Under the pieces are notes generated by a model. The model had not been told where the DNA came from, did not search any database, and worked only from the letters and a program-made list of their open reading frames with translations. This document shows, one piece after another, positions 18,305-45,069 of a stretch of 64,000 nt of DNA. Numbering within the stretch: the stretch's first letter is position 1; the number at the start of each line of letters is the position of its first letter. The position numbers and the translations under genes are program-made. The DNA lies in the NCBI RefSeq assembly GCF_003018255.1, contig NZ_CP027440.1, one strand, 5' to 3'. This DNA is from Escherichia coli. Its GTDB lineage: Bacteria; Pseudomonadota; Gammaproteobacteria; Enterobacterales; Enterobacteriaceae.

Positions 18305-19188
18305 GGGAGTTCTACCGCAGGGGCGGGGAATTCTAAGTGATATCCATCATCGCATCCAGTGCGCCCGGTTTATCCCCGCTGACGCGGGGAACACACATGA
18401 ATGTCGGTTCAGACCGTGTTTTTACCCGGTTTATCCCCGCTGGCGCGGGGAACACGAGGCTGAACAGGGAGGGGGCTACCGGCACAGCGGTTTATCCCCG
18501 CTGGCGCGGGGAACACTTGCCAACCGCCAAAGACTGGAAAACCAATCTCGGTTTATCCCCGCTGGCGCGGGGAACACTTAAACTTGCCGCCGGTATGGGG
18601 GGAACGGGCCGGTTTATCCCCGCTGGCGCGGGGAACTCGTTTCGCGTCGATCGCCTTTTGCGCAATCGCGCCGGTTTATCCCCGCTGGCGCGGGGAACTC
18701 TTTCTTTTTCCATTTAAGTTATTCTAATACCCCGGTTTATCCCCGCTGGCGCGGGGAACTCGATCATGCCTTACTAAAAGGTCCGCTGACGGGCGGTTTA
18801 TCCCCGCTGGCGCGGGGAACTCATCATGACAAAAAGTTACGCTCATCTATTCAACGGTTTATCCCCGCTGGCGCGGGGAACTCTCCATATGTTGCCCCGC
18901 TCGGGACAACACCCCCGGTTTATCCCCGCTGGCGCGGGGAACTCTTAGCGCCGACAAAAGAAGTTGCGGATAACAGCGGTTTATCCCCGCTGGCGCGGGG
19001 AACTCGCCCGTTCCCAGGGAGTGCGGCTCCACCCCCGCGGTTTATCCCCGCTGACGCGGGGAACTCTTCAGTTTCACACTCGGTAATGCCGTTATTTACG
19101 GTTTATCCCCGCTGGCGCGGGGAACTCCTCGGGGCCAGCCTCCCCCATTAACCCGGCACCGGTTTATCCCCGCTGGCGCGGGGAACTC
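18305..19188 (-). CRISPR. type I-E CRISPR array: 14 intact or near-intact 29-nt repeats plus one degenerate terminal repeat (18305-18333), 14 spacers
   Basis: Plus-strand repeat CGGTTTATCCCCGCTGGCGCGGGGAACTC at a 61-nt period (reverse complement of the canonical E. coli repeat GAGTTCCCCGCGCCAGCGGGGATAAACCG). Spacers are 32 nt, one is 33 nt. The four leader-distal repeats end in CAC rather than CTC. Confidence 0.98.
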
Positions 19189-22879: not shown

Positions 22880-23362
22880 TTACGCATTTTTGTTTGTGGT
22901 CAATACAAAATCTTCCAGAAGTTGCTGGCGTTCGCGCTTTCCCCACCAGGTCAACATCCTGGCCATTAATGGCCAGTCAAGTACGGGTTCGGCGTGAGTA
23001 AGTAATCGACGTAACTGGACCATATCGGCTGTTCTGTCAGCCCGAATTAATTGAAAGATACGGCGCTCGTTAATTCTTCCACTATTGGCTAAAGCTCTTC
23101 CCAACGAGATACCTGTTGTTTGCTCCGTTTTTTTGTCCTGATGTCGGATGACATTCTTTCCTGCGCTCAGGCAAAACACCATGCGCAAAAGAGCCTGCTG
23201 GTGACGTGGGTTTTCCCAACCAAAAGATTGCACCAGCCTATAAAACGCAGGGATATCGCGTAATTCATCAGGTTCTGAAACACGTCTAATTTGCGCACAT
23301 GCTCCATTATCCAGTTGTTGCCAGGCTCGATATAAAGCCATTGCATCAATTTCATCAGCCAT
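22880..23362 (-). CDS. casB: Cse2 (CasB) Cascade small subunit
   Basis: 160-aa ORF; 8-nt overlap with the casA 3' end. Confidence 0.95.
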   Translation of the reverse strand: MADEIDAMALYRAWQQLDNGACAQIRRVSEPDELRDIPAFYRLVQSFGWENPRHQQALLRMVFCLSAGKNVIRHQDKKTEQTTGISLGRALANSGRINERRIFQLIRADRTADMVQLRRLLTHAEPVLDWPLMARMLTWWGKRERQQLLEDFVLTTNKNA

Positions 23363-24863
23363 TTGATGGCCCTCCTTGAGGTTTTAACTCCCGTAAATGT
23401 TTGTATAGCGTGGCGCGGGCAAGCGCTAATGTGCTTATTAATTTAGGATGATGTGCATAGGGAGCTACAGATTGATTAAATAGCATTTCACACAATTGAT
23501 GAAGTTTGTCTCGTAAATCAGCTATTACCTCATCAGCTTGGGAAAAATTAATATTCGCCAATACATCGGGAATTAATAATTCACTCTGTCGATAGAAATG
23601 CCTTTCTGCAGTCTCATGAACAGAAACTCCGGCCCCTTTGAAGTCTTTATTTTTAAACCCTTCTGCAAAGGTATATAACGCCTTGCGTAAGGCTGTTTTA
23701 TATCCCAAACCAACAGTCACTATTTCGTTTATCACATTGCCGTATTGTTGCCACCCCTGATTAAACATCAACACATCATGACGCCGTTCAAGAATAGATG
23801 CTTGATTATTACGATATCCCCCCATAATCAATTCAAGAGGACTTTGCGGCGCAATATTTCTGAATTGATTCACAACCGCCGCCACGCGATTTCCATTTTC
23901 ATTTTGAATAATCTTATCTACCACAACTCGGCTGATTTGTGTCCATGATGGTGCGGAGGTGGTGAAAGCAAGAAATTTTTCCTCAACCTCCCCTTTCTTG
24001 ACTGTTACCAGACAAGGGGAATGCGGATGGGGCCATAGCCCATTAACTGTAAAGGTAAATTTTTCCTTAAGAAAACCGGTATAACGCAAATTGCTTTCCT
24101 GACCACAGCAAGAACATTTACCAATCCCAATGGGATCGCATAGTTCAATATGCGCTGGTTGCCAGAATAAACCACGGACAAACCCAATTGAAGAAGCAGG
24201 CACCGATTCATTCGGCTTGACAGGCTTAACCCAGGTAGGTTGGTTTTCCGTATGTAATTCATTGGGAAATTGTTTTTGAAGACGAGGTATTGTGAGGACA
24301 TTGAGTAATACCGTCGAGCGAAGATCGATCCCACATACGAAGGTGGTTATAGGTGTTCCTCCACGTAAACCGCTTTTAAAGCCACCACCAAAACCAGGTG
24401 CCTGATTCGCCTGGTTGAATAACGCAATCGCAGTGCATCCACCACATAATGCTTCACCCTGCCCCGGTTGATTGACAAATGCACAATTCGTCGCGCCGCT
24501 TACCCCAGCCAACAGTTTTTCCATTGGAGTCACATCATTTGCTTTGACACCTTTGGTCTGCATAAAGGGATGTTCTGCGTGATTAAGGTAGAACATATCT
24601 ATCCACGGCGCGATGAGTTGTTGAAACTCATCTTCAGTGAGCGGATTCATTATGCGATGTCGAAATTCAACGTCATCTTTTGCCGGGGCGATAATTTGCC
24701 CAATGCAAACCAGCAGTGCTAAAGTGGCCAGTTCCATATCGTCACGGGGCAAACTTAATCGCCACTGATCTCTACTGCAGTATAGCGATTGCAGATTTAT
24801 GATTTGGACTTTCCCCCCGTTTCGCGGGCGTACAGGGATCCAGTTATCAATAAGCAAATTCAT
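23355..24863 (-). CDS. casA: Cse1 (CasA) Cascade large subunit
   Basis: 502-aa ORF with N-terminus MNLLIDNWIPVRPRNGGKVQIINLQSLY. Confidence 0.95.
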   Translation of the reverse strand: MNLLIDNWIPVRPRNGGKVQIINLQSLYCSRDQWRLSLPRDDMELATLALLVCIGQIIAPAKDDVEFRHRIMNPLTEDEFQQLIAPWIDMFYLNHAEHPFMQTKGVKANDVTPMEKLLAGVSGATNCAFVNQPGQGEALCGGCTAIALFNQANQAPGFGGGFKSGLRGGTPITTFVCGIDLRSTVLLNVLTIPRLQKQFPNELHTENQPTWVKPVKPNESVPASSIGFVRGLFWQPAHIELCDPIGIGKCSCCGQESNLRYTGFLKEKFTFTVNGLWPHPHSPCLVTVKKGEVEEKFLAFTTSAPSWTQISRVVVDKIIQNENGNRVAAVVNQFRNIAPQSPLELIMGGYRNNQASILERRHDVLMFNQGWQQYGNVINEIVTVGLGYKTALRKALYTFAEGFKNKDFKGAGVSVHETAERHFYRQSELLIPDVLANINFSQADEVIADLRDKLHQLCEMLFNQSVAPYAHHPKLISTLALARATLYKHLRELKPQGGPSNG

Positions 24864-25205
24864 TTGTTCTCCTTCATATGCTCCGACATTTCTCCTGCAT
24901 TTCTATGCGTCGGCACACTTCCGTTATCGGTAAAAACAAAGAAAAAATACGGCGTAATTAATTCAATAATCACATTCACTGCAAAAATATATTCATTGGT
25001 TTAATACAATTAACCTATACATATATTAAGATGTGTTGAATTGTTTAAAGACAATAATGCATGCATTTCAAATCTGCAAGTTATTCGTTTTATTATCAAA
25101 GAAATTTTTAGTTATAATAATTACCATAAATTTTATTACATAAAATATTCATACTGTGAATATAAAATCTCATACCGGGAAATTAAAAGAAGATGTACAT
25201 TGTGC
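24864..25205 (-). promoter_or_regulatory. cas3-casA intergenic region holding the cascade operon promoter (Pcas); expected H-NS-bound AT-rich DNA
   Basis: About 340 bp of very AT-rich sequence upstream of casA; promoter and H-NS/LeuO control are taken from established knowledge of the E. coli I-E locus, and no exact -10/-35 was called. Confidence 0.55.
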
Positions 25206-25234
25206 ACTTTCCCTACTTAAGTAGGGATAAACCG
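25206..25234 (+). repeat. solitary degenerate CRISPR-repeat-like hairpin, sense on the plus strand (antisense to cas genes and arrays)
   Basis: ACTTTCCCTACTTAAGTAGGGATAAACCG against the canonical sense repeat GAGTTCCCCGCGCCAGCGGGGATAAACCG: same length, 19/29 identical, terminal GGGATAAACCG identical, 6-bp stem and 4-nt loop kept by compensatory changes. Confidence 0.6.
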
Positions 25235-25277
25235 TTATTGGTCTTGTTATCGTCATTGATACCAATCATTCCCGAAG

Positions 25278-27944
25278 TTATTTGGGATTTGCAGGGATGA
25301 CTCTGGTCATCCCTTCATCCCGAGTGTAGGTAATAACAATATTATTACCCTGCCAGATCCATCCATCCTGATTCTGTTTCCCTTCCAGCCAAAGTAACCC
25401 ATCTTCATCTACTACTTCAGAAAAATTACGTTTCCAGGTGAAGGGTACATTGACGCGATTAAGTGCTAACGCCTCATACTGCTGTTCATGACTTAGGTCC
25501 TCGTAGACCTGGCCATCGAGCAGTTGTTTACCTGAAGACGTTTGTAAATAAGGCAATAATGGCAGGCTCATTTCCCCATCCCTCGTTACCGCAAGAATTG
25601 TTTCATCGTTATCCTGCAAGCTATATTCTTCAGCCCACTGCAGAACCTTGCGAGCCTTGAACCTCTTTTCACACTCAGCGCTTTCAAACTTATCCATGCC
25701 TTTGATGACCCATTCTGGCTCATCCATTTCAGCATCATCGTAAATGCTATCCAGCCATTGCCGGTAGGCATCGGGGAAAAATAAGGATGCTCCATTAAGT
25801 TCCTCAATATGTTGCTGCGTCCGCCACATGACTCTAACGTTGCTATAAATATGCTCATGTCGTCCGTAACCTTCGCCATCAGGCAGCAAAACGGTGGCAA
25901 GAGGAACCTCAAAACCAGCGGGACGATATTTGCGATGATGGCGATGTAAACGGCCCAATCGTTGGAAAAGTAAATCTGCGGGGCAATGCTGAGTAATTAA
26001 CCAATCAAAATCAACGTCGAGTGATTGTTCCACGACCTGGGTGGCGACAAGTATCCGTCCAACATTTCGCTTCCCATTTTTGCCGAAATTGCTAATAACT
26101 CGATTCTCTTTTTCACGACGATCGTTCAGCGTAAAGCGCGCATGAAACAAATCTATATCTACTTGCGTGTTATTTAGTTCCTTTAACCGTTGGTGGCATA
26201 GCTGTGCAACATCAACCAAATTGCAGATAAGACAGACTTGTGCACCCGCATTTGCCGCTACGATCATTCGCTCTAACATCCTAAGGTCAGGTAACATGTC
26301 AGCTAAATAAATAGGTTCTGGCCGAATCGAAAAGCGGGGCGGGAGTTGTTCTGAATGAGCTAACAGATCAAAACGTTGTGCACCATTCACACCTCGCCAG
26401 TTAATGAGTGGATATGCGGAGTTATTTTCCTCTGGATCTGTATGCAGACCATAAGTATCCAGAAGTTTCTGTTTTTGTTTCATTGGTAGAGTTGCGGAAA
26501 GAAGAATAACACTCCCCCCCACATCAGCCTGAGCCTTGAGCACAGCCTCCAGCAAGCCGTTCATATACGTGTCGTAAGCATGAACTTCATCAACAATTAA
26601 AACACTTCGACCAATTCCCAAACCACGGATAAAGCGGTGTTTAACTGGCAATACCGATATCAACACCTGATCAATCGTGCAAACGCCGATTTGCCCAAGA
26701 AACACTTTCTTATTGCTTTGTGACAACCACTGACAACACTGAACCCATGCTTCTTCTTGCCCCTGCTCAGTAAATGCGCGTGATTTTATTGATTGAAAAA
26801 GGTGGTTAAAACGTGAATTACCATGAGCAAGAATAAGATTTGGGGAGGTAAATAAACGGCTCGCGTTCGCTTCCATTCTGCTGAGCATTGCATTTGCAGT
26901 AGCTTGTGTAGGGAGGGCAAAAATAACACTATCCGCAAGTTGTTGGTCAATAAGTTTCCAGGCATAGGCCAGCGCAGTTTCAGTTTTACCTGAACCCGTA
27001 GGTGCCTCTATTACCGTCAGCCCGGGCGCTACTGGAAGAGCATCAACTAACACTTGTAATTGTCTGGGTTGATAGCCATTGTCCAGTAGAGCATGAACAC
27101 CTTCATAACATCGCTTATTTGATACAAGGCCGCTCAACTCCAATACCCGGCTCGCATCCTGCTGTCGGTCCTGGAAATACGTTCTTAGAGCATTTATGTT
27201 GGAAGGTGCATCCTCTTTAAACAGAAAGGTATTCGTTGTAGTCCAGGAGCCTAACCAGTCAGCAAGCGAGCAAAAACCTGCTAACAGTGATGAACAATCA
27301 GGTGGTATATCGTTTATAGATAACCCGGCTGGCGTTAAAAATAATGCTTCGAGTACAGATATCCACTCCTCACGAGCCTGTTTATCTTGCGCAGCATAAG
27401 ATGCCAGAGAAGCTGGCATTTCCCAACGCGACTTATCTTGATCCTGGGAATGTAATATAAAACCATGATGTCCTGTAACAGCCTCTACCCATGGAAACCA
27501 GGACTCATAAGGATGAGGAGCGGCATCAAAAAAACTGAAAAAATCCCCGGGAGATTGCTCTGAAAGTGAATCCTGGTTAAACCAATACAGACCGGCTGCA
27601 CCATGATTAAATTTACGGCACATTTGTGTTGATGGACCATTAAGTGATGGCGTTGCAGGATTTAATTTCAGCCAACTTTCTGCTGATTTATATTGGAATC
27701 GTATATCAAACTTTCCGATATCATGAAGGGCAATGAAAAATAACAGCCAGGCTTTCACCTTCTGTTTTGATAGCATTTCATTTCGGCAAAAAGCATTTTG
27801 TAGTACGACTGATTGATCCCACCAGCAATCTGCAACAGCTGCAACATCCAGGCAATGATAAATCAACAGATGAATATCATTTCCTTTCGTCAGGCTTTTT
27901 GAGGATTTCCCCCAGTAATGACATATATATTTAAAAGGTTCCAT
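25278..27944 (-). CDS. cas3: Cas3 HD nuclease / SF2 helicase (type I signature protein)
   Basis: 888-aa ORF with HD-domain N-terminus (HCLDVAAVADCWW...) and helicase motifs (GSGKTE, DEVH). Confidence 0.95.
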   Translation of the reverse strand: MEPFKYICHYWGKSSKSLTKGNDIHLLIYHCLDVAAVADCWWDQSVVLQNAFCRNEMLSKQKVKAWLLFFIALHDIGKFDIRFQYKSAESWLKLNPATPSLNGPSTQMCRKFNHGAAGLYWFNQDSLSEQSPGDFFSFFDAAPHPYESWFPWVEAVTGHHGFILHSQDQDKSRWEMPASLASYAAQDKQAREEWISVLEALFLTPAGLSINDIPPDCSSLLAGFCSLADWLGSWTTTNTFLFKEDAPSNINALRTYFQDRQQDASRVLELSGLVSNKRCYEGVHALLDNGYQPRQLQVLVDALPVAPGLTVIEAPTGSGKTETALAYAWKLIDQQLADSVIFALPTQATANAMLSRMEANASRLFTSPNLILAHGNSRFNHLFQSIKSRAFTEQGQEEAWVQCCQWLSQSNKKVFLGQIGVCTIDQVLISVLPVKHRFIRGLGIGRSVLIVDEVHAYDTYMNGLLEAVLKAQADVGGSVILLSATLPMKQKQKLLDTYGLHTDPEENNSAYPLINWRGVNGAQRFDLLAHSEQLPPRFSIRPEPIYLADMLPDLRMLERMIVAANAGAQVCLICNLVDVAQLCHQRLKELNNTQVDIDLFHARFTLNDRREKENRVISNFGKNGKRNVGRILVATQVVEQSLDVDFDWLITQHCPADLLFQRLGRLHRHHRKYRPAGFEVPLATVLLPDGEGYGRHEHIYSNVRVMWRTQQHIEELNGASLFFPDAYRQWLDSIYDDAEMDEPEWVIKGMDKFESAECEKRFKARKVLQWAEEYSLQDNDETILAVTRDGEMSLPLLPYLQTSSGKQLLDGQVYEDLSHEQQYEALALNRVNVPFTWKRNFSEVVDEDGLLWLEGKQNQDGWIWQGNNIVITYTRDEGMTRVIPANPK

Positions 27945-44097: not shown

Positions 44098-44132
44098 GTG
44101 AGGAAGGCCGGGCGGGAAACTGCCCGGCCTGA

Positions 44133-44271
44133 ACATACCTGAATGGTTATCCCCGCTGACGCGGGGAACATAAGTTCGACAACTTAAAAAATGATAACAA
44201 GTCCGGTTTATCCCCGCTGATGCAGGGAACATAATAAAAACTTTAACTAGTTCGGTTTATCCCTGTTTTTA
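44133..44271 (-). CRISPR. degenerate CRISPR remnant: three decayed repeats with AT-rich spacer-length intervals
   Basis: GGTTATCCCCGCTGACGCGGGGAACA, CGGTTTATCCCCGCTGATGCAGGGAACAT and CGGTTTATCCCTGTTTTTACAAGGAATAT at about 60-nt spacing, just downstream of ygcE. Confidence 0.8.
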
Positions 44272-44735
44272 CAAGGAATATTAACTACACTCGATGTCTT
44301 TAGAATAAAAGACAATACGAATCGTACTTTATCAATTTTCATTTAAAGTATGAACTGGATATCTTTATTCATAAGAACAATTCATCAACAGCGTATAGAG
44401 GCGGTTATGTAAAACCGCTCATTAGCCTCAAAACAAAGACAAATTTCCAGATTTATTACTTAATCAATGAATAACAAGCTTAAAAAATACACTGTAATTC
44501 TAAAGAAAAAATTAACAGGCATTAATTCAATATTAAAAAAATAATAGATTAAAATTTCTTAACGATTTAAGTATCATACAAATAACACTTTGATTAAATT
44601 TAATTTTTTGTATCGATAATTGTGAACTTCTCTGGCATGGAGAACTATTTTGAACATGAGGTGTTACGTGGATATGTTGCTTATTACAAGTACAGCTAAT
44701 ATAAAAACTTGAGAAAGAGATAACGGGTTATATGG

Positions 44736-45069
44736 TGGTTTATCCCCGCAGGCGCGGGGAACTCATAGAGAAAAGAAACGGCAGCTTTGCCACTTCCGGT
44801 TTATCCCCGCTGGCGCGGGGAACTCCGCGTTTCTAATCTCACCGCCACGGCGATCAACGGTTTATCCCCGCTGGCGCGGGGAACTCACCCCTTTAACGTC
44901 ACCAGACCGCTAACGACGCGGTTTATCCCCGCTGGCGCGGGGAACTCGCGTAACCATTTTGATGGCGCTACCGAAATGGCGGTTTATCCCCGCTGGCGCG
45001 GGGAACTCGATCAACGGCCTGGCGGCTGCCTCTGAAATCTCGGTTTATCCCCGCTGGCGCGGGGAACTC
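44736..45069 (-). CRISPR. orphan type I-E CRISPR array: 6 repeats, 5 spacers of 32 nt
   Basis: Same repeat as the cas-adjacent array at a 61-nt period; the leader-distal repeat is a variant (TGGTTTATCCCCGCAGGCGCGGGGAACTC). Confidence 0.97.

Follow-up and report, generated by a model that had tools for sequence, protein, structure and literature searches.

A PAM-flanked pseudo-spacer target and a degenerate mini-array in the AT-rich cas3-casA control region of a K-12-type Escherichia coli type I-E cas cluster

Regulatory mini-arrays belong to a class of crRNA-like regulators, recognised only recently, by which CRISPR effectors adjust the level at which they are expressed and detect crRNA load or an attack by anti-CRISPRs. 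In tracr-L, which is of type II-A and so belongs to the Cas9 systems, a partially complementary crRNA-like guide makes the effector a repressor. The same conversion, again by a partially complementary crRNA-like guide, is reportedly at work in CreTA, a CRISPR-regulated toxin-antitoxin that Li et al. are said to have described in 2021.

Two descriptions come closest to the locus considered here. CreR of the Salmonella enterica type I-E system represses PcasA about 8.6-fold using the E. coli Cascade (Liu et al. 2023, bioRxiv 10.1101/2023.03.10.532045). For E. coli itself, Shmakov et al. 2023 (PMC10120712) describe a type I-E mini-array between cas3 and cas8e that consists of two repeat-like units transcribed opposite to cas3; its seed adjoins the better-conserved repeat, its PAM is AAG, its target overlaps an H-NS site near Pcas, and its start region overlaps LeuO and CRP sites. 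The same preprint reports that no IHF site was found for the mini-array, and that the mini-array validated was that of the P. aeruginosa type I-F1 system, not that of E. coli; anti-Pcas is not mentioned there. In the literature searched, validation of the class was found only for the Salmonella type I-E CreR expressed in E. coli and for the P. aeruginosa type I-F1 mini-array, and no searchable paper was found to state that the mini-array transcript is the anti-Pcas RNA of Pul et al.

The promoters of this region have been studied extensively in E. coli K-12. According to reviews that cite Pul et al. 2010, Pcas (or Pcas8e), upstream of casA/cas8e, is the H-NS-silenced start of cas transcription, and a divergent promoter on the opposite strand, anti-Pcas, is likewise repressed by H-NS and has no known role; the RNA made from it is 150-200 nt long, has an overlap with the cas3 transcript and was predicted to fold elaborately. 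LeuO has two AT-rich sites (I and II), which lie on either side of the Pcas start, and LrhA is bound to both of them (LrhA paper 2026). CRP acts as a repressor at coordinates reported as -281 to -259, where its site and a LeuO site overlap. For SlyA, an EMSA has been published on the exact 414-bp K-12 fragment, with a candidate site centred 100 bp upstream of the casA ATG, and the cas3-casA region is listed among the H-NS-associated "promoter islands" of E. coli.

The locus examined here lies in a 64-kb stretch of E. coli DNA, which as a whole is called the window. On the - strand its neighbourhood has the order iap, CRISPR, cas2e, cas1e, cas6e, cas5e, cas7e, casB, casA, cas3, cysH, as in the identical RefSeq record. 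The identities of casA and cas3 are confirmed: casA (23355-24863, - strand, 502 aa) matches the NCBIfam equivalog Cse1/CasA with 903.7 bits and its 5' side ends at 24863, and cas3 (25278-27944, - strand, 888 aa) matches the Cas3 profile with 1606.3 bits and has its stop codon at 25278-25280. The interval between the two genes and its most AT-rich part are as follows.

24864-25277, no strand assigned: cas3-casA intergenic region, 414 bp, GC 29.7%, orthologue of K-12 2884139-2884552
24930-25210, no strand assigned: AT-rich core, GC 23%, roughly coinciding with the published promoter island 2882192_323

The original prediction had described a 414-bp, very AT-rich spacer between cas3 and casA in an otherwise compact operon. 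Its coordinates are exact, and the composition is borne out: GC is 29.7% in the gap against 50.6% in the window and drops to 23.1% in the core (24930-25210, and also 24950-25200), and within the 64-kb window 0.46% of all 414-bp segments are equally AT-rich. After conversion of coordinates between genome versions, the promoter island would lie at about 24894-25216 here (+/-2 nt). The compactness also holds, the remaining junctions of the cas cluster running from a 14-nt overlap to a 15-nt gap (-14 to +15 nt) in the identical RefSeq record; the single operon does not, because cas3 has its own promoter in E. coli, and the gap therefore divides two transcription units instead of interrupting one.

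The interval is 100% identical to that of a complete E. coli chromosome and 98.3% identical to that of K-12. The MG1655 counterpart (2884139-2884552), the casA-cas3 intergenic region known as IGLB with Pcas/Pcas8e and anti-Pcas, occupies the same locus between the same flanking genes, has the same length of 414 bp and differs by 7 SNPs. Since only 7 positions differ, the K-12 literature applies here, including the works of Pul et al. 2010, Westra et al. 2010, Yang et al. 2014, Curran et al. 2017, Fragel et al. 2019 and the LrhA paper of 2026. Three of the published regulator sites can be placed on this sequence by letters or coordinates, and each has a candidate here: the SlyA box (at -100), the site of CRP (by its coordinates) and an H-NS-like motif. 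They are listed together with the best promoter candidate on the + strand.

24958-24969, - strand: published candidate SlyA site TTATTGAATTAA, the box being present at the published distance of 100 bp upstream of the casA ATG
25085-25094, + strand: H-NS-like motif TCGTTTTATT, which agrees at 9/10 positions with the high-affinity motif TCGWTWAATT and lies within the pseudo-spacer target described below
25090-25118, + strand: best candidate for the anti-Pcas or mini-array promoter, with -35 TTATTA at 25090-25095, a 17-nt spacer and a perfect -10 TATAAT at 25113-25118
25122-25144, no strand assigned: presumed place of the published CRP site (-281 to -259), taking the casA ATG as the point of reference

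At the published CRP position, 25128 is A here and G in K-12, so that the better half of a weak CRP-like half-site is lost here. The sequence does not by itself establish promoter activity. The H-NS motif is matched 23 times in the window where 19 matches would be expected, which is chance level and no enrichment, and a sigma-70 and terminator consensus scan gave no enrichment either, with 2 sigma-70-like sites against 3.4 expected in shuffles. A hexamer scan gave many weak promoter-like candidates on both strands, and Pcas is therefore not placeable from the sequence. As scans and motif counts are at chance level, the case for promoters and H-NS in this interval, which the original prediction had also made, draws its support from orthology with K-12 (414 bp, 7 SNPs) and from the published K-12 experiments. 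The interval is best explained as the regulatory region of a K-12-type type I-E cas cluster, with Pcas and anti-Pcas carried over by orthology. By the same transfer, Pcas would be a sigma-70 promoter driving casABCDE-cas1-cas2 on the - strand; anti-Pcas would produce a + strand RNA of 150-200 nt that enters cas3 from its 3' end; H-NS, or StpA when H-NS is absent, would bind and silence the AT-rich DNA; and LeuO, LrhA and SlyA would act as activators or counter-silencers and CRP as a repressor. Because an AT-rich gap with Pcas, an antisense promoter and H-NS is already known and indeed textbook knowledge for E. coli K-12, the observation of the gap adds nothing new. The residual interest lies in a predicted native loop of the CreR type, more than in the AT-rich gap itself.

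A repeat-like hairpin had been reported in the gap as well. The hairpin is real (25206-25234, with 19 of 29 positions identical to the CRISPR repeat and the same fold), but its extent was understated, since it is half of a complete mini-array of two pseudo-repeats, psiR1 and psiR2, separated by a pseudo-spacer, psiS.

25206-25234, + strand: psiR1, degenerate repeat ACTTTCCCTACTTAAGTAGGGATAAACCG, stem 25210-25216 / 25221-25227
25227-25234, + strand: intact 8-nt 5' handle AUAAACCG, part of psiR1
25235-25265, + strand: psiS, 31-nt pseudo-spacer TTATTGGTCTTGTTATCGTCATTGATACCAA, between psiR1 and psiR2
25266-25294, + strand: psiR2, strongly degenerate repeat TCATTCCCGAAGTTATTTGGGATTTGCAG, with a 7-bp stem and 4-nt loop in register

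The mini-array psiR1-psiS-psiR2 lies on the + strand, antisense to the cas genes, and the hairpin loop of psiR2 contains the cas3 stop codon at 25278-25280. The true repeat, GAGTTCCCCGCGCCAGCGGGGATAAACCG, is found in - strand arrays at 18366-19188 and 44736-45069. A match to the repeat as good as that of psiR1 is reached by 0.15% of dinucleotide shuffles of the 600-bp surroundings (P about 0.0015), and the exact GGGATAAACCG contained in psiR1 is the sole + strand copy within the window. The resemblance of psiR2 to the repeat (14/29) is not significant by identity alone; psiR1, psiR2 and the true repeat nevertheless have the dot-bracket structure ....(((((((....)))))))....... in common. In an alignment of the stems of 12 sequences, comprising the true repeat and the pseudo-repeats of five genera (that of the window and four others), 94% of stem cells pair against 78.8% in shuffles, a level reached by none of 500 shuffles, and 13 double-sided changes are seen, a number that likewise none of the 500 shuffles attains. 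Once the 3' partners are shifted by 1-3 columns, this signal breaks down. Units of the psiR1 type retain the exact 5' handle ATAAACCG, units of the psiR2 type retain the hairpin and not the tail, and this pattern recurs in the four other genera. The psiR2-type units further carry the GGGAT of repeat positions 19-23, within which Cas6e is presumed to cleave, namely between G21 and A22.

An adaptation-competent CRISPR array was rejected as an explanation, there being two degenerate units only and the true arrays lying elsewhere on the - strand. A second repeat-like stretch, in the first codons of casA (24805-24845), matches the repeat at 15/29, which is chance level.

The pseudo-spacer has a partial match of its own on the same strand, within the gap.

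25078-25080, + strand: PAM AAG (canonical for type I-E), directly 5' of the target, invariant in 8 E. coli haplotypes
25081-25111, + strand: protospacer-like target of psiS, matching at positions 1-17 (25081-25097) except at 6, 9 and 12, with no match beyond 17

The start of psiS, TTATTGGTCTTGTTATC, is to be compared with TTATTCGTTTTATTATC on the + strand at 25081-25097; in the seed, all of positions 1-5 and 7-8 agree. Cascade leaves positions 6 and 12 flipped out and unpaired, as Shmakov et al. 2023 also note. By this count, 14 of the 15 pairing positions within 1-17 are matched, the mismatch falling at the paired position 9, and K-12 has a further mismatch at 17. No other site on either strand of the 64 kb has both an interference-type PAM and an intact seed (1-5, 7-8). 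A PAM and seed together with 14/15 or more paired positions turned up once in 20,000 shuffles of the region (5e-5) and with none of 20,000 shuffled spacers. The target lies 125 nt upstream of psiR1 and 218 bp upstream of casA, and overlaps the -35 and the spacer of the best + strand promoter candidate.

All of this, derived independently, fits what Shmakov et al. 2023 say of their E. coli element, with which the present mini-array appears to be identical at the sequence level; the E. coli mini-array and its target are already predicted in the literature (PMC10120712). The locus also resembles Salmonella CreR (10.1101/2023.03.10.532045): both are a degenerate mini-CRISPR upstream of casA in which psiR1 keeps the handle and psiR2 keeps the 3' hairpin, and in both the pseudo-spacer partially matches a site that has an AAG next to it and lies upstream of casA. 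CreR differs in belonging to another cas variant and in its sequences. Its pseudo-spacer has an unbroken 15-nt match about 140 bp upstream of casA, whereas the E. coli match is one of 14/17 nt, broken at 6, 9 and 12, at 218 bp upstream of casA; the surroundings of the E. coli element, moreover, are extremely AT-rich and bound by H-NS, and the element overlaps the cas3 stop codon. A CreTA module was rejected, as the ORFs of the gap are only 20-71 aa long, AT-rich and unsupported, and the target lies in the cas promoter region, not in a toxin promoter. Nor can these small ORFs be conserved across relatives, because the pseudo-spacers differ there. Searches for phage or plasmid mimics of the mini-array or the target, of the kind of viral "Cracr"-type arrays, returned AT-rich noise only (E >= 0.02).

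To compare the arrangement with that of related bacteria, one genome per species with CasA was scanned, which yielded 27 related loci. A repeat-like antisense unit beside the cas3 stop is present in long-gap loci, namely those of Citrobacter amalonaticus (317 bp), two Pantoea (341 and 348 bp), Edaphovirga cremea (356 bp) and a Methylobacter MAG (604 bp), and the short-gap loci among the 27 (61-115 bp) have no repeat-like unit. The pseudo-spacers of these relatives are 20-31 nt long and mutually unrelated in sequence, yet in Citrobacter amalonaticus, Pantoea sp. GD03673, Edaphovirga cremea and the Methylobacter MAG each has its own AAG-flanked match 54-87 nt upstream on the same strand. In these four, 13-14 of 15 positions are paired, a level reached by 0-1 of 3000 shuffles each, and the mismatches are concentrated at 6 and 12; Pantoea sp. 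1.19 has a weak target (10/15 paired, 98/3000 shuffles). Since spacer and target have changed together across genera, there is strong evidence for selection on the pairing. In the relatives the AT-richness of the gap is slight, with a GC of 0.39-0.46 where the locus has 0.44-0.54, from which it follows that the mini-array is the conserved part and extreme AT-richness an E. coli overlay.

Variation within E. coli adds to this, so that mini-array and target show purifying as well as co-evolutionary constraint. The 8 haplotypes compared vary at 21 sites of the gap, and the PAM, target positions 1-16, psiR1 positions 4-29, psiS positions 1-11 and 13-27 and the whole of psiR2 are free of such sites. 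The variable sites that do touch the element are at target positions 17, 20 and 25, at psiS positions 12 (flipped out) and 28, and at psiR1 position 3; of these, target 17 and 25, psiS 12 and 28 and psiR1 3 also account for other SNPs that separate the sequence from K-12.

Three rival accounts of these features may be weighed against this evidence. One is that AT-richness, hairpin and spacer-target match are chance features of an AT-rich spacer. AT-rich DNA does yield many repeats (21 inverted pairs are found) and many promoter-like hexamers, but the shuffle frequencies of psiR1 (0.0015) and of the extended PAM-seed match (about 5e-5), together with recurrence in other genera at 0-1/3000 each, effectively refute this account, and we consider it extremely improbable.

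According to a second account, the region is an H-NS-silenced promoter region only, and the hairpins are what is left of a decaying old CRISPR unit or self-targeting spacer with no present function. The degeneracy of both units (19/29 and 14/29) would be in keeping with decay, as would the result of an Rfam 15 scan of 24600-25600, which up to E = 10 returned snoRNA-type noise only (E >= 1.5) and thus no family match; the cas system is silent in laboratory E. coli, according to PMC12248084, and several strains keep the region despite a casA pseudogene. A decaying remnant would not, however, be expected to show an exact 5' handle, a 7-bp stem with compensatory changes, an AAG PAM and an intact seed, nor would it be expected to have counterparts in four other genera whose pseudo-spacers differ and still match their own loci, nor to be free of SNPs at its critical positions among 8 haplotypes. 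We therefore hold this account to be unlikely, though the least so of the three.

The third account concerns the RNA that would be read through the mini-array. From the + strand promoter candidate, transcription is predicted to start at about 25125, and from there about 195 nt lead to the end, near 25319, of a further hairpin, against a published length of 150-200 nt for the anti-Pcas RNA.

25290-25317, + strand: hairpin with a 9-bp stem, -15.5 kcal/mol, within the last cas3 codons; a possible 3' boundary of the antisense RNA

The predicted + strand RNA of 201 nt is unusually structured (MFE -59.7 kcal/mol, z = -5.2), and a strong hairpin occurs in the terminal cas3 codons at the equivalent place in five related loci. 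The anti-Pcas RNA could accordingly be a classical antisense RNA that acts on the 3' end of the cas3 mRNA, through termination, stability or translation, and not a crRNA-like guide. This was the original suggestion of Pul et al., as reviews relate it, and it agrees with the overlap of the predicted RNA with the last cas3 codons and stop (25278-25325), with the strong structure and with the hairpin of the relatives. It leaves unexplained the repeat-derived handle, the PAM-flanked seed match upstream and the covariation of pseudo-spacer and target across genera, and as the whole explanation we regard it as quite improbable. An antisense role and a guide role of the anti-Pcas RNA are not mutually exclusive.

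Taken as a whole, a control region that contains a CreR-type mini-array is the best explanation of the interval, and we consider it likely. The mini-array probably lets Cascade switch off its own promoter. Somewhat better than even, in our judgement, are the chances of the more specific proposal that a native CreR-type guide is made from the anti-Pcas RNA, and that with this guide Cascade represses both Pcas and the guide's own promoter at the site of the H-NS motif. Under this proposal, the anti-Pcas transcript would be processed as the precursor of a CreR-type crRNA-like RNA: each hairpin would be cleaved at its base by Cas6e, after G21 of the unit, which would release a 60-nt RNA (25227-25286) with a canonical 5' handle. 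Cascade loaded with that RNA would bind the PAM-flanked site at 25078-25097 in the divergent promoter region, and would there act as a repressor of Pcas, and probably also of the mini-array promoter, giving negative feedback after H-NS silencing is lifted.

The length of the match bears on what such binding would do. In vivo, AAG and 5-10 seed nucleotides are enough for the E. coli Cascade to bind, and interference or priming need at least 18-25 bp, so that binding without cleavage is predicted for this match; as only about 14 bases would be paired, the R-loop should be incomplete and Cas3 should not be licensed. Against the proposal counts the observation that off-target Cascade binding in E. 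coli generally leaves local expression unchanged. Because the cas genes, and hence Cas6e and Cascade, are silenced under laboratory conditions, the feedback loop would be operative only after de-repression. The standard "constitutive cas" strains used for Cascade ChIP-seq could not have detected the loop, because in them a synthetic promoter replaces cas3 and the native promoter region.

If the proposal is true, a second, self-tuning layer of silencing would lie beneath that of H-NS, which could explain why the cas genes are de-repressed more weakly by hns deletion than by LeuO overexpression, and which bears on why and how the E. coli type I-E system stays silent. It would also matter for strain design, most engineered strains having the mini-array deleted.

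The K-12-type region is found in 1133 of 5426 complete E. coli genomes, nearly always at more than 95% identity, and blastn in its "distant" mode found no diverged copies of the region among the other 4293. The O157-type I-E variant of E. coli occupies the same chromosomal site (iap to cysH) with the same gene order, but its cas3-casA gap is just 97 bp long, has a GC content of 45% and contains no repeat-like sequence. The long AT-rich region with its mini-array is thus specific to the K-12-type variant.

Elsewhere in the window, a CRISPR2.2-like mini-array lies at 44140-44263, and its PAM-flanked target hits within the window are seed-only and at chance level. Only one further tract, at about 44124-44800, equals the cas3-casA gap in AT-richness.

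Within the AT-rich region between casA and cas3, position 25128 carries G only in K-12, one of the eight haplotypes, and A in the window and six other strains. The K-12 base creates CATGA-N6-TTACA, which weakly resembles a CRP site and falls at the coordinates published for CRP binding. Because only K-12 among the eight haplotypes has this form of the site, repression of Pcas by CRP may be weaker in other strains.

The intergenic region and its mini-array are intact in four E. coli strains even though each of them has a casA annotated as a pseudogene, either truncated or interrupted by an internal stop:

L030, O145 RM9873-C1
L031, 67-1
L032, Z226-6
L033, FUJ80154

The other E. coli I-E variant, represented by O157 AR-0430 (L036), differs in that its cas3-casA gap is just 97 bp long (L036 9597-9693; 45% GC), and no repeat-like sequence was found in that gap; in this strain a Hok/Gef gene lies between cas3 and cysH. 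The widely used CB386-derived "constitutive cas" strains of E. coli have the genotype (delta-cas3 Pcse1)::PJ23119 (spelled PJ23199 in the paper). As a result, they no longer contain the native intergenic region, and with it the mini-array and the target are missing too.

At the cas3 end, a strong hairpin (25290-25317; 9-bp stem, -15.5 kcal/mol) is formed by the final cas3 codons, in a segment encoding the residues G-M-T-R-V-I-P. A strong hairpin immediately follows psiR2 of the mini-array in all five related loci compared (L003, L005, L006, L021 and L028), the stems differing in sequence. The hairpin may be where the antisense RNA ends, or it may stabilize the cas3 mRNA. At the start of casA, on the + strand and antisense to its first codons, the stretch 24805-24845 contains TGGACTTTCCC; this sequence and the one flanking psiR1 on its 5' side (25203-25213) agree in 10 of 11 positions. 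The sequence following TGGACTTTCCC was considered as a CRISPR repeat and rejected, as its 15/29 match is at the level of chance.

Another degenerate mini-array lies at 44140-44263 (- strand), within the AT-rich tract 44124-44800 and about 470 bp past the last repeat of the array at 44736-45069; it is probably the minor E. coli locus known as "CRISPR2.2". Its layout on the - strand is as follows:

partial repeat ..CAGGGATAAACCG
22 nt
GTTCCCTGCATCAGCGGGGATAAACCG
33-nt spacer
TGTTCCCCGCGTCAGCGGGGATAACCA

For neither of its spacers was a PAM-flanked extended target found within the window. The main array (18366-19188) comprises 14 repeats in total, the four leader-distal ones (18366-18577) being of a GTG variant (GTGTTCCCCGCG...), and one of these four carries an additional C-to-T change.
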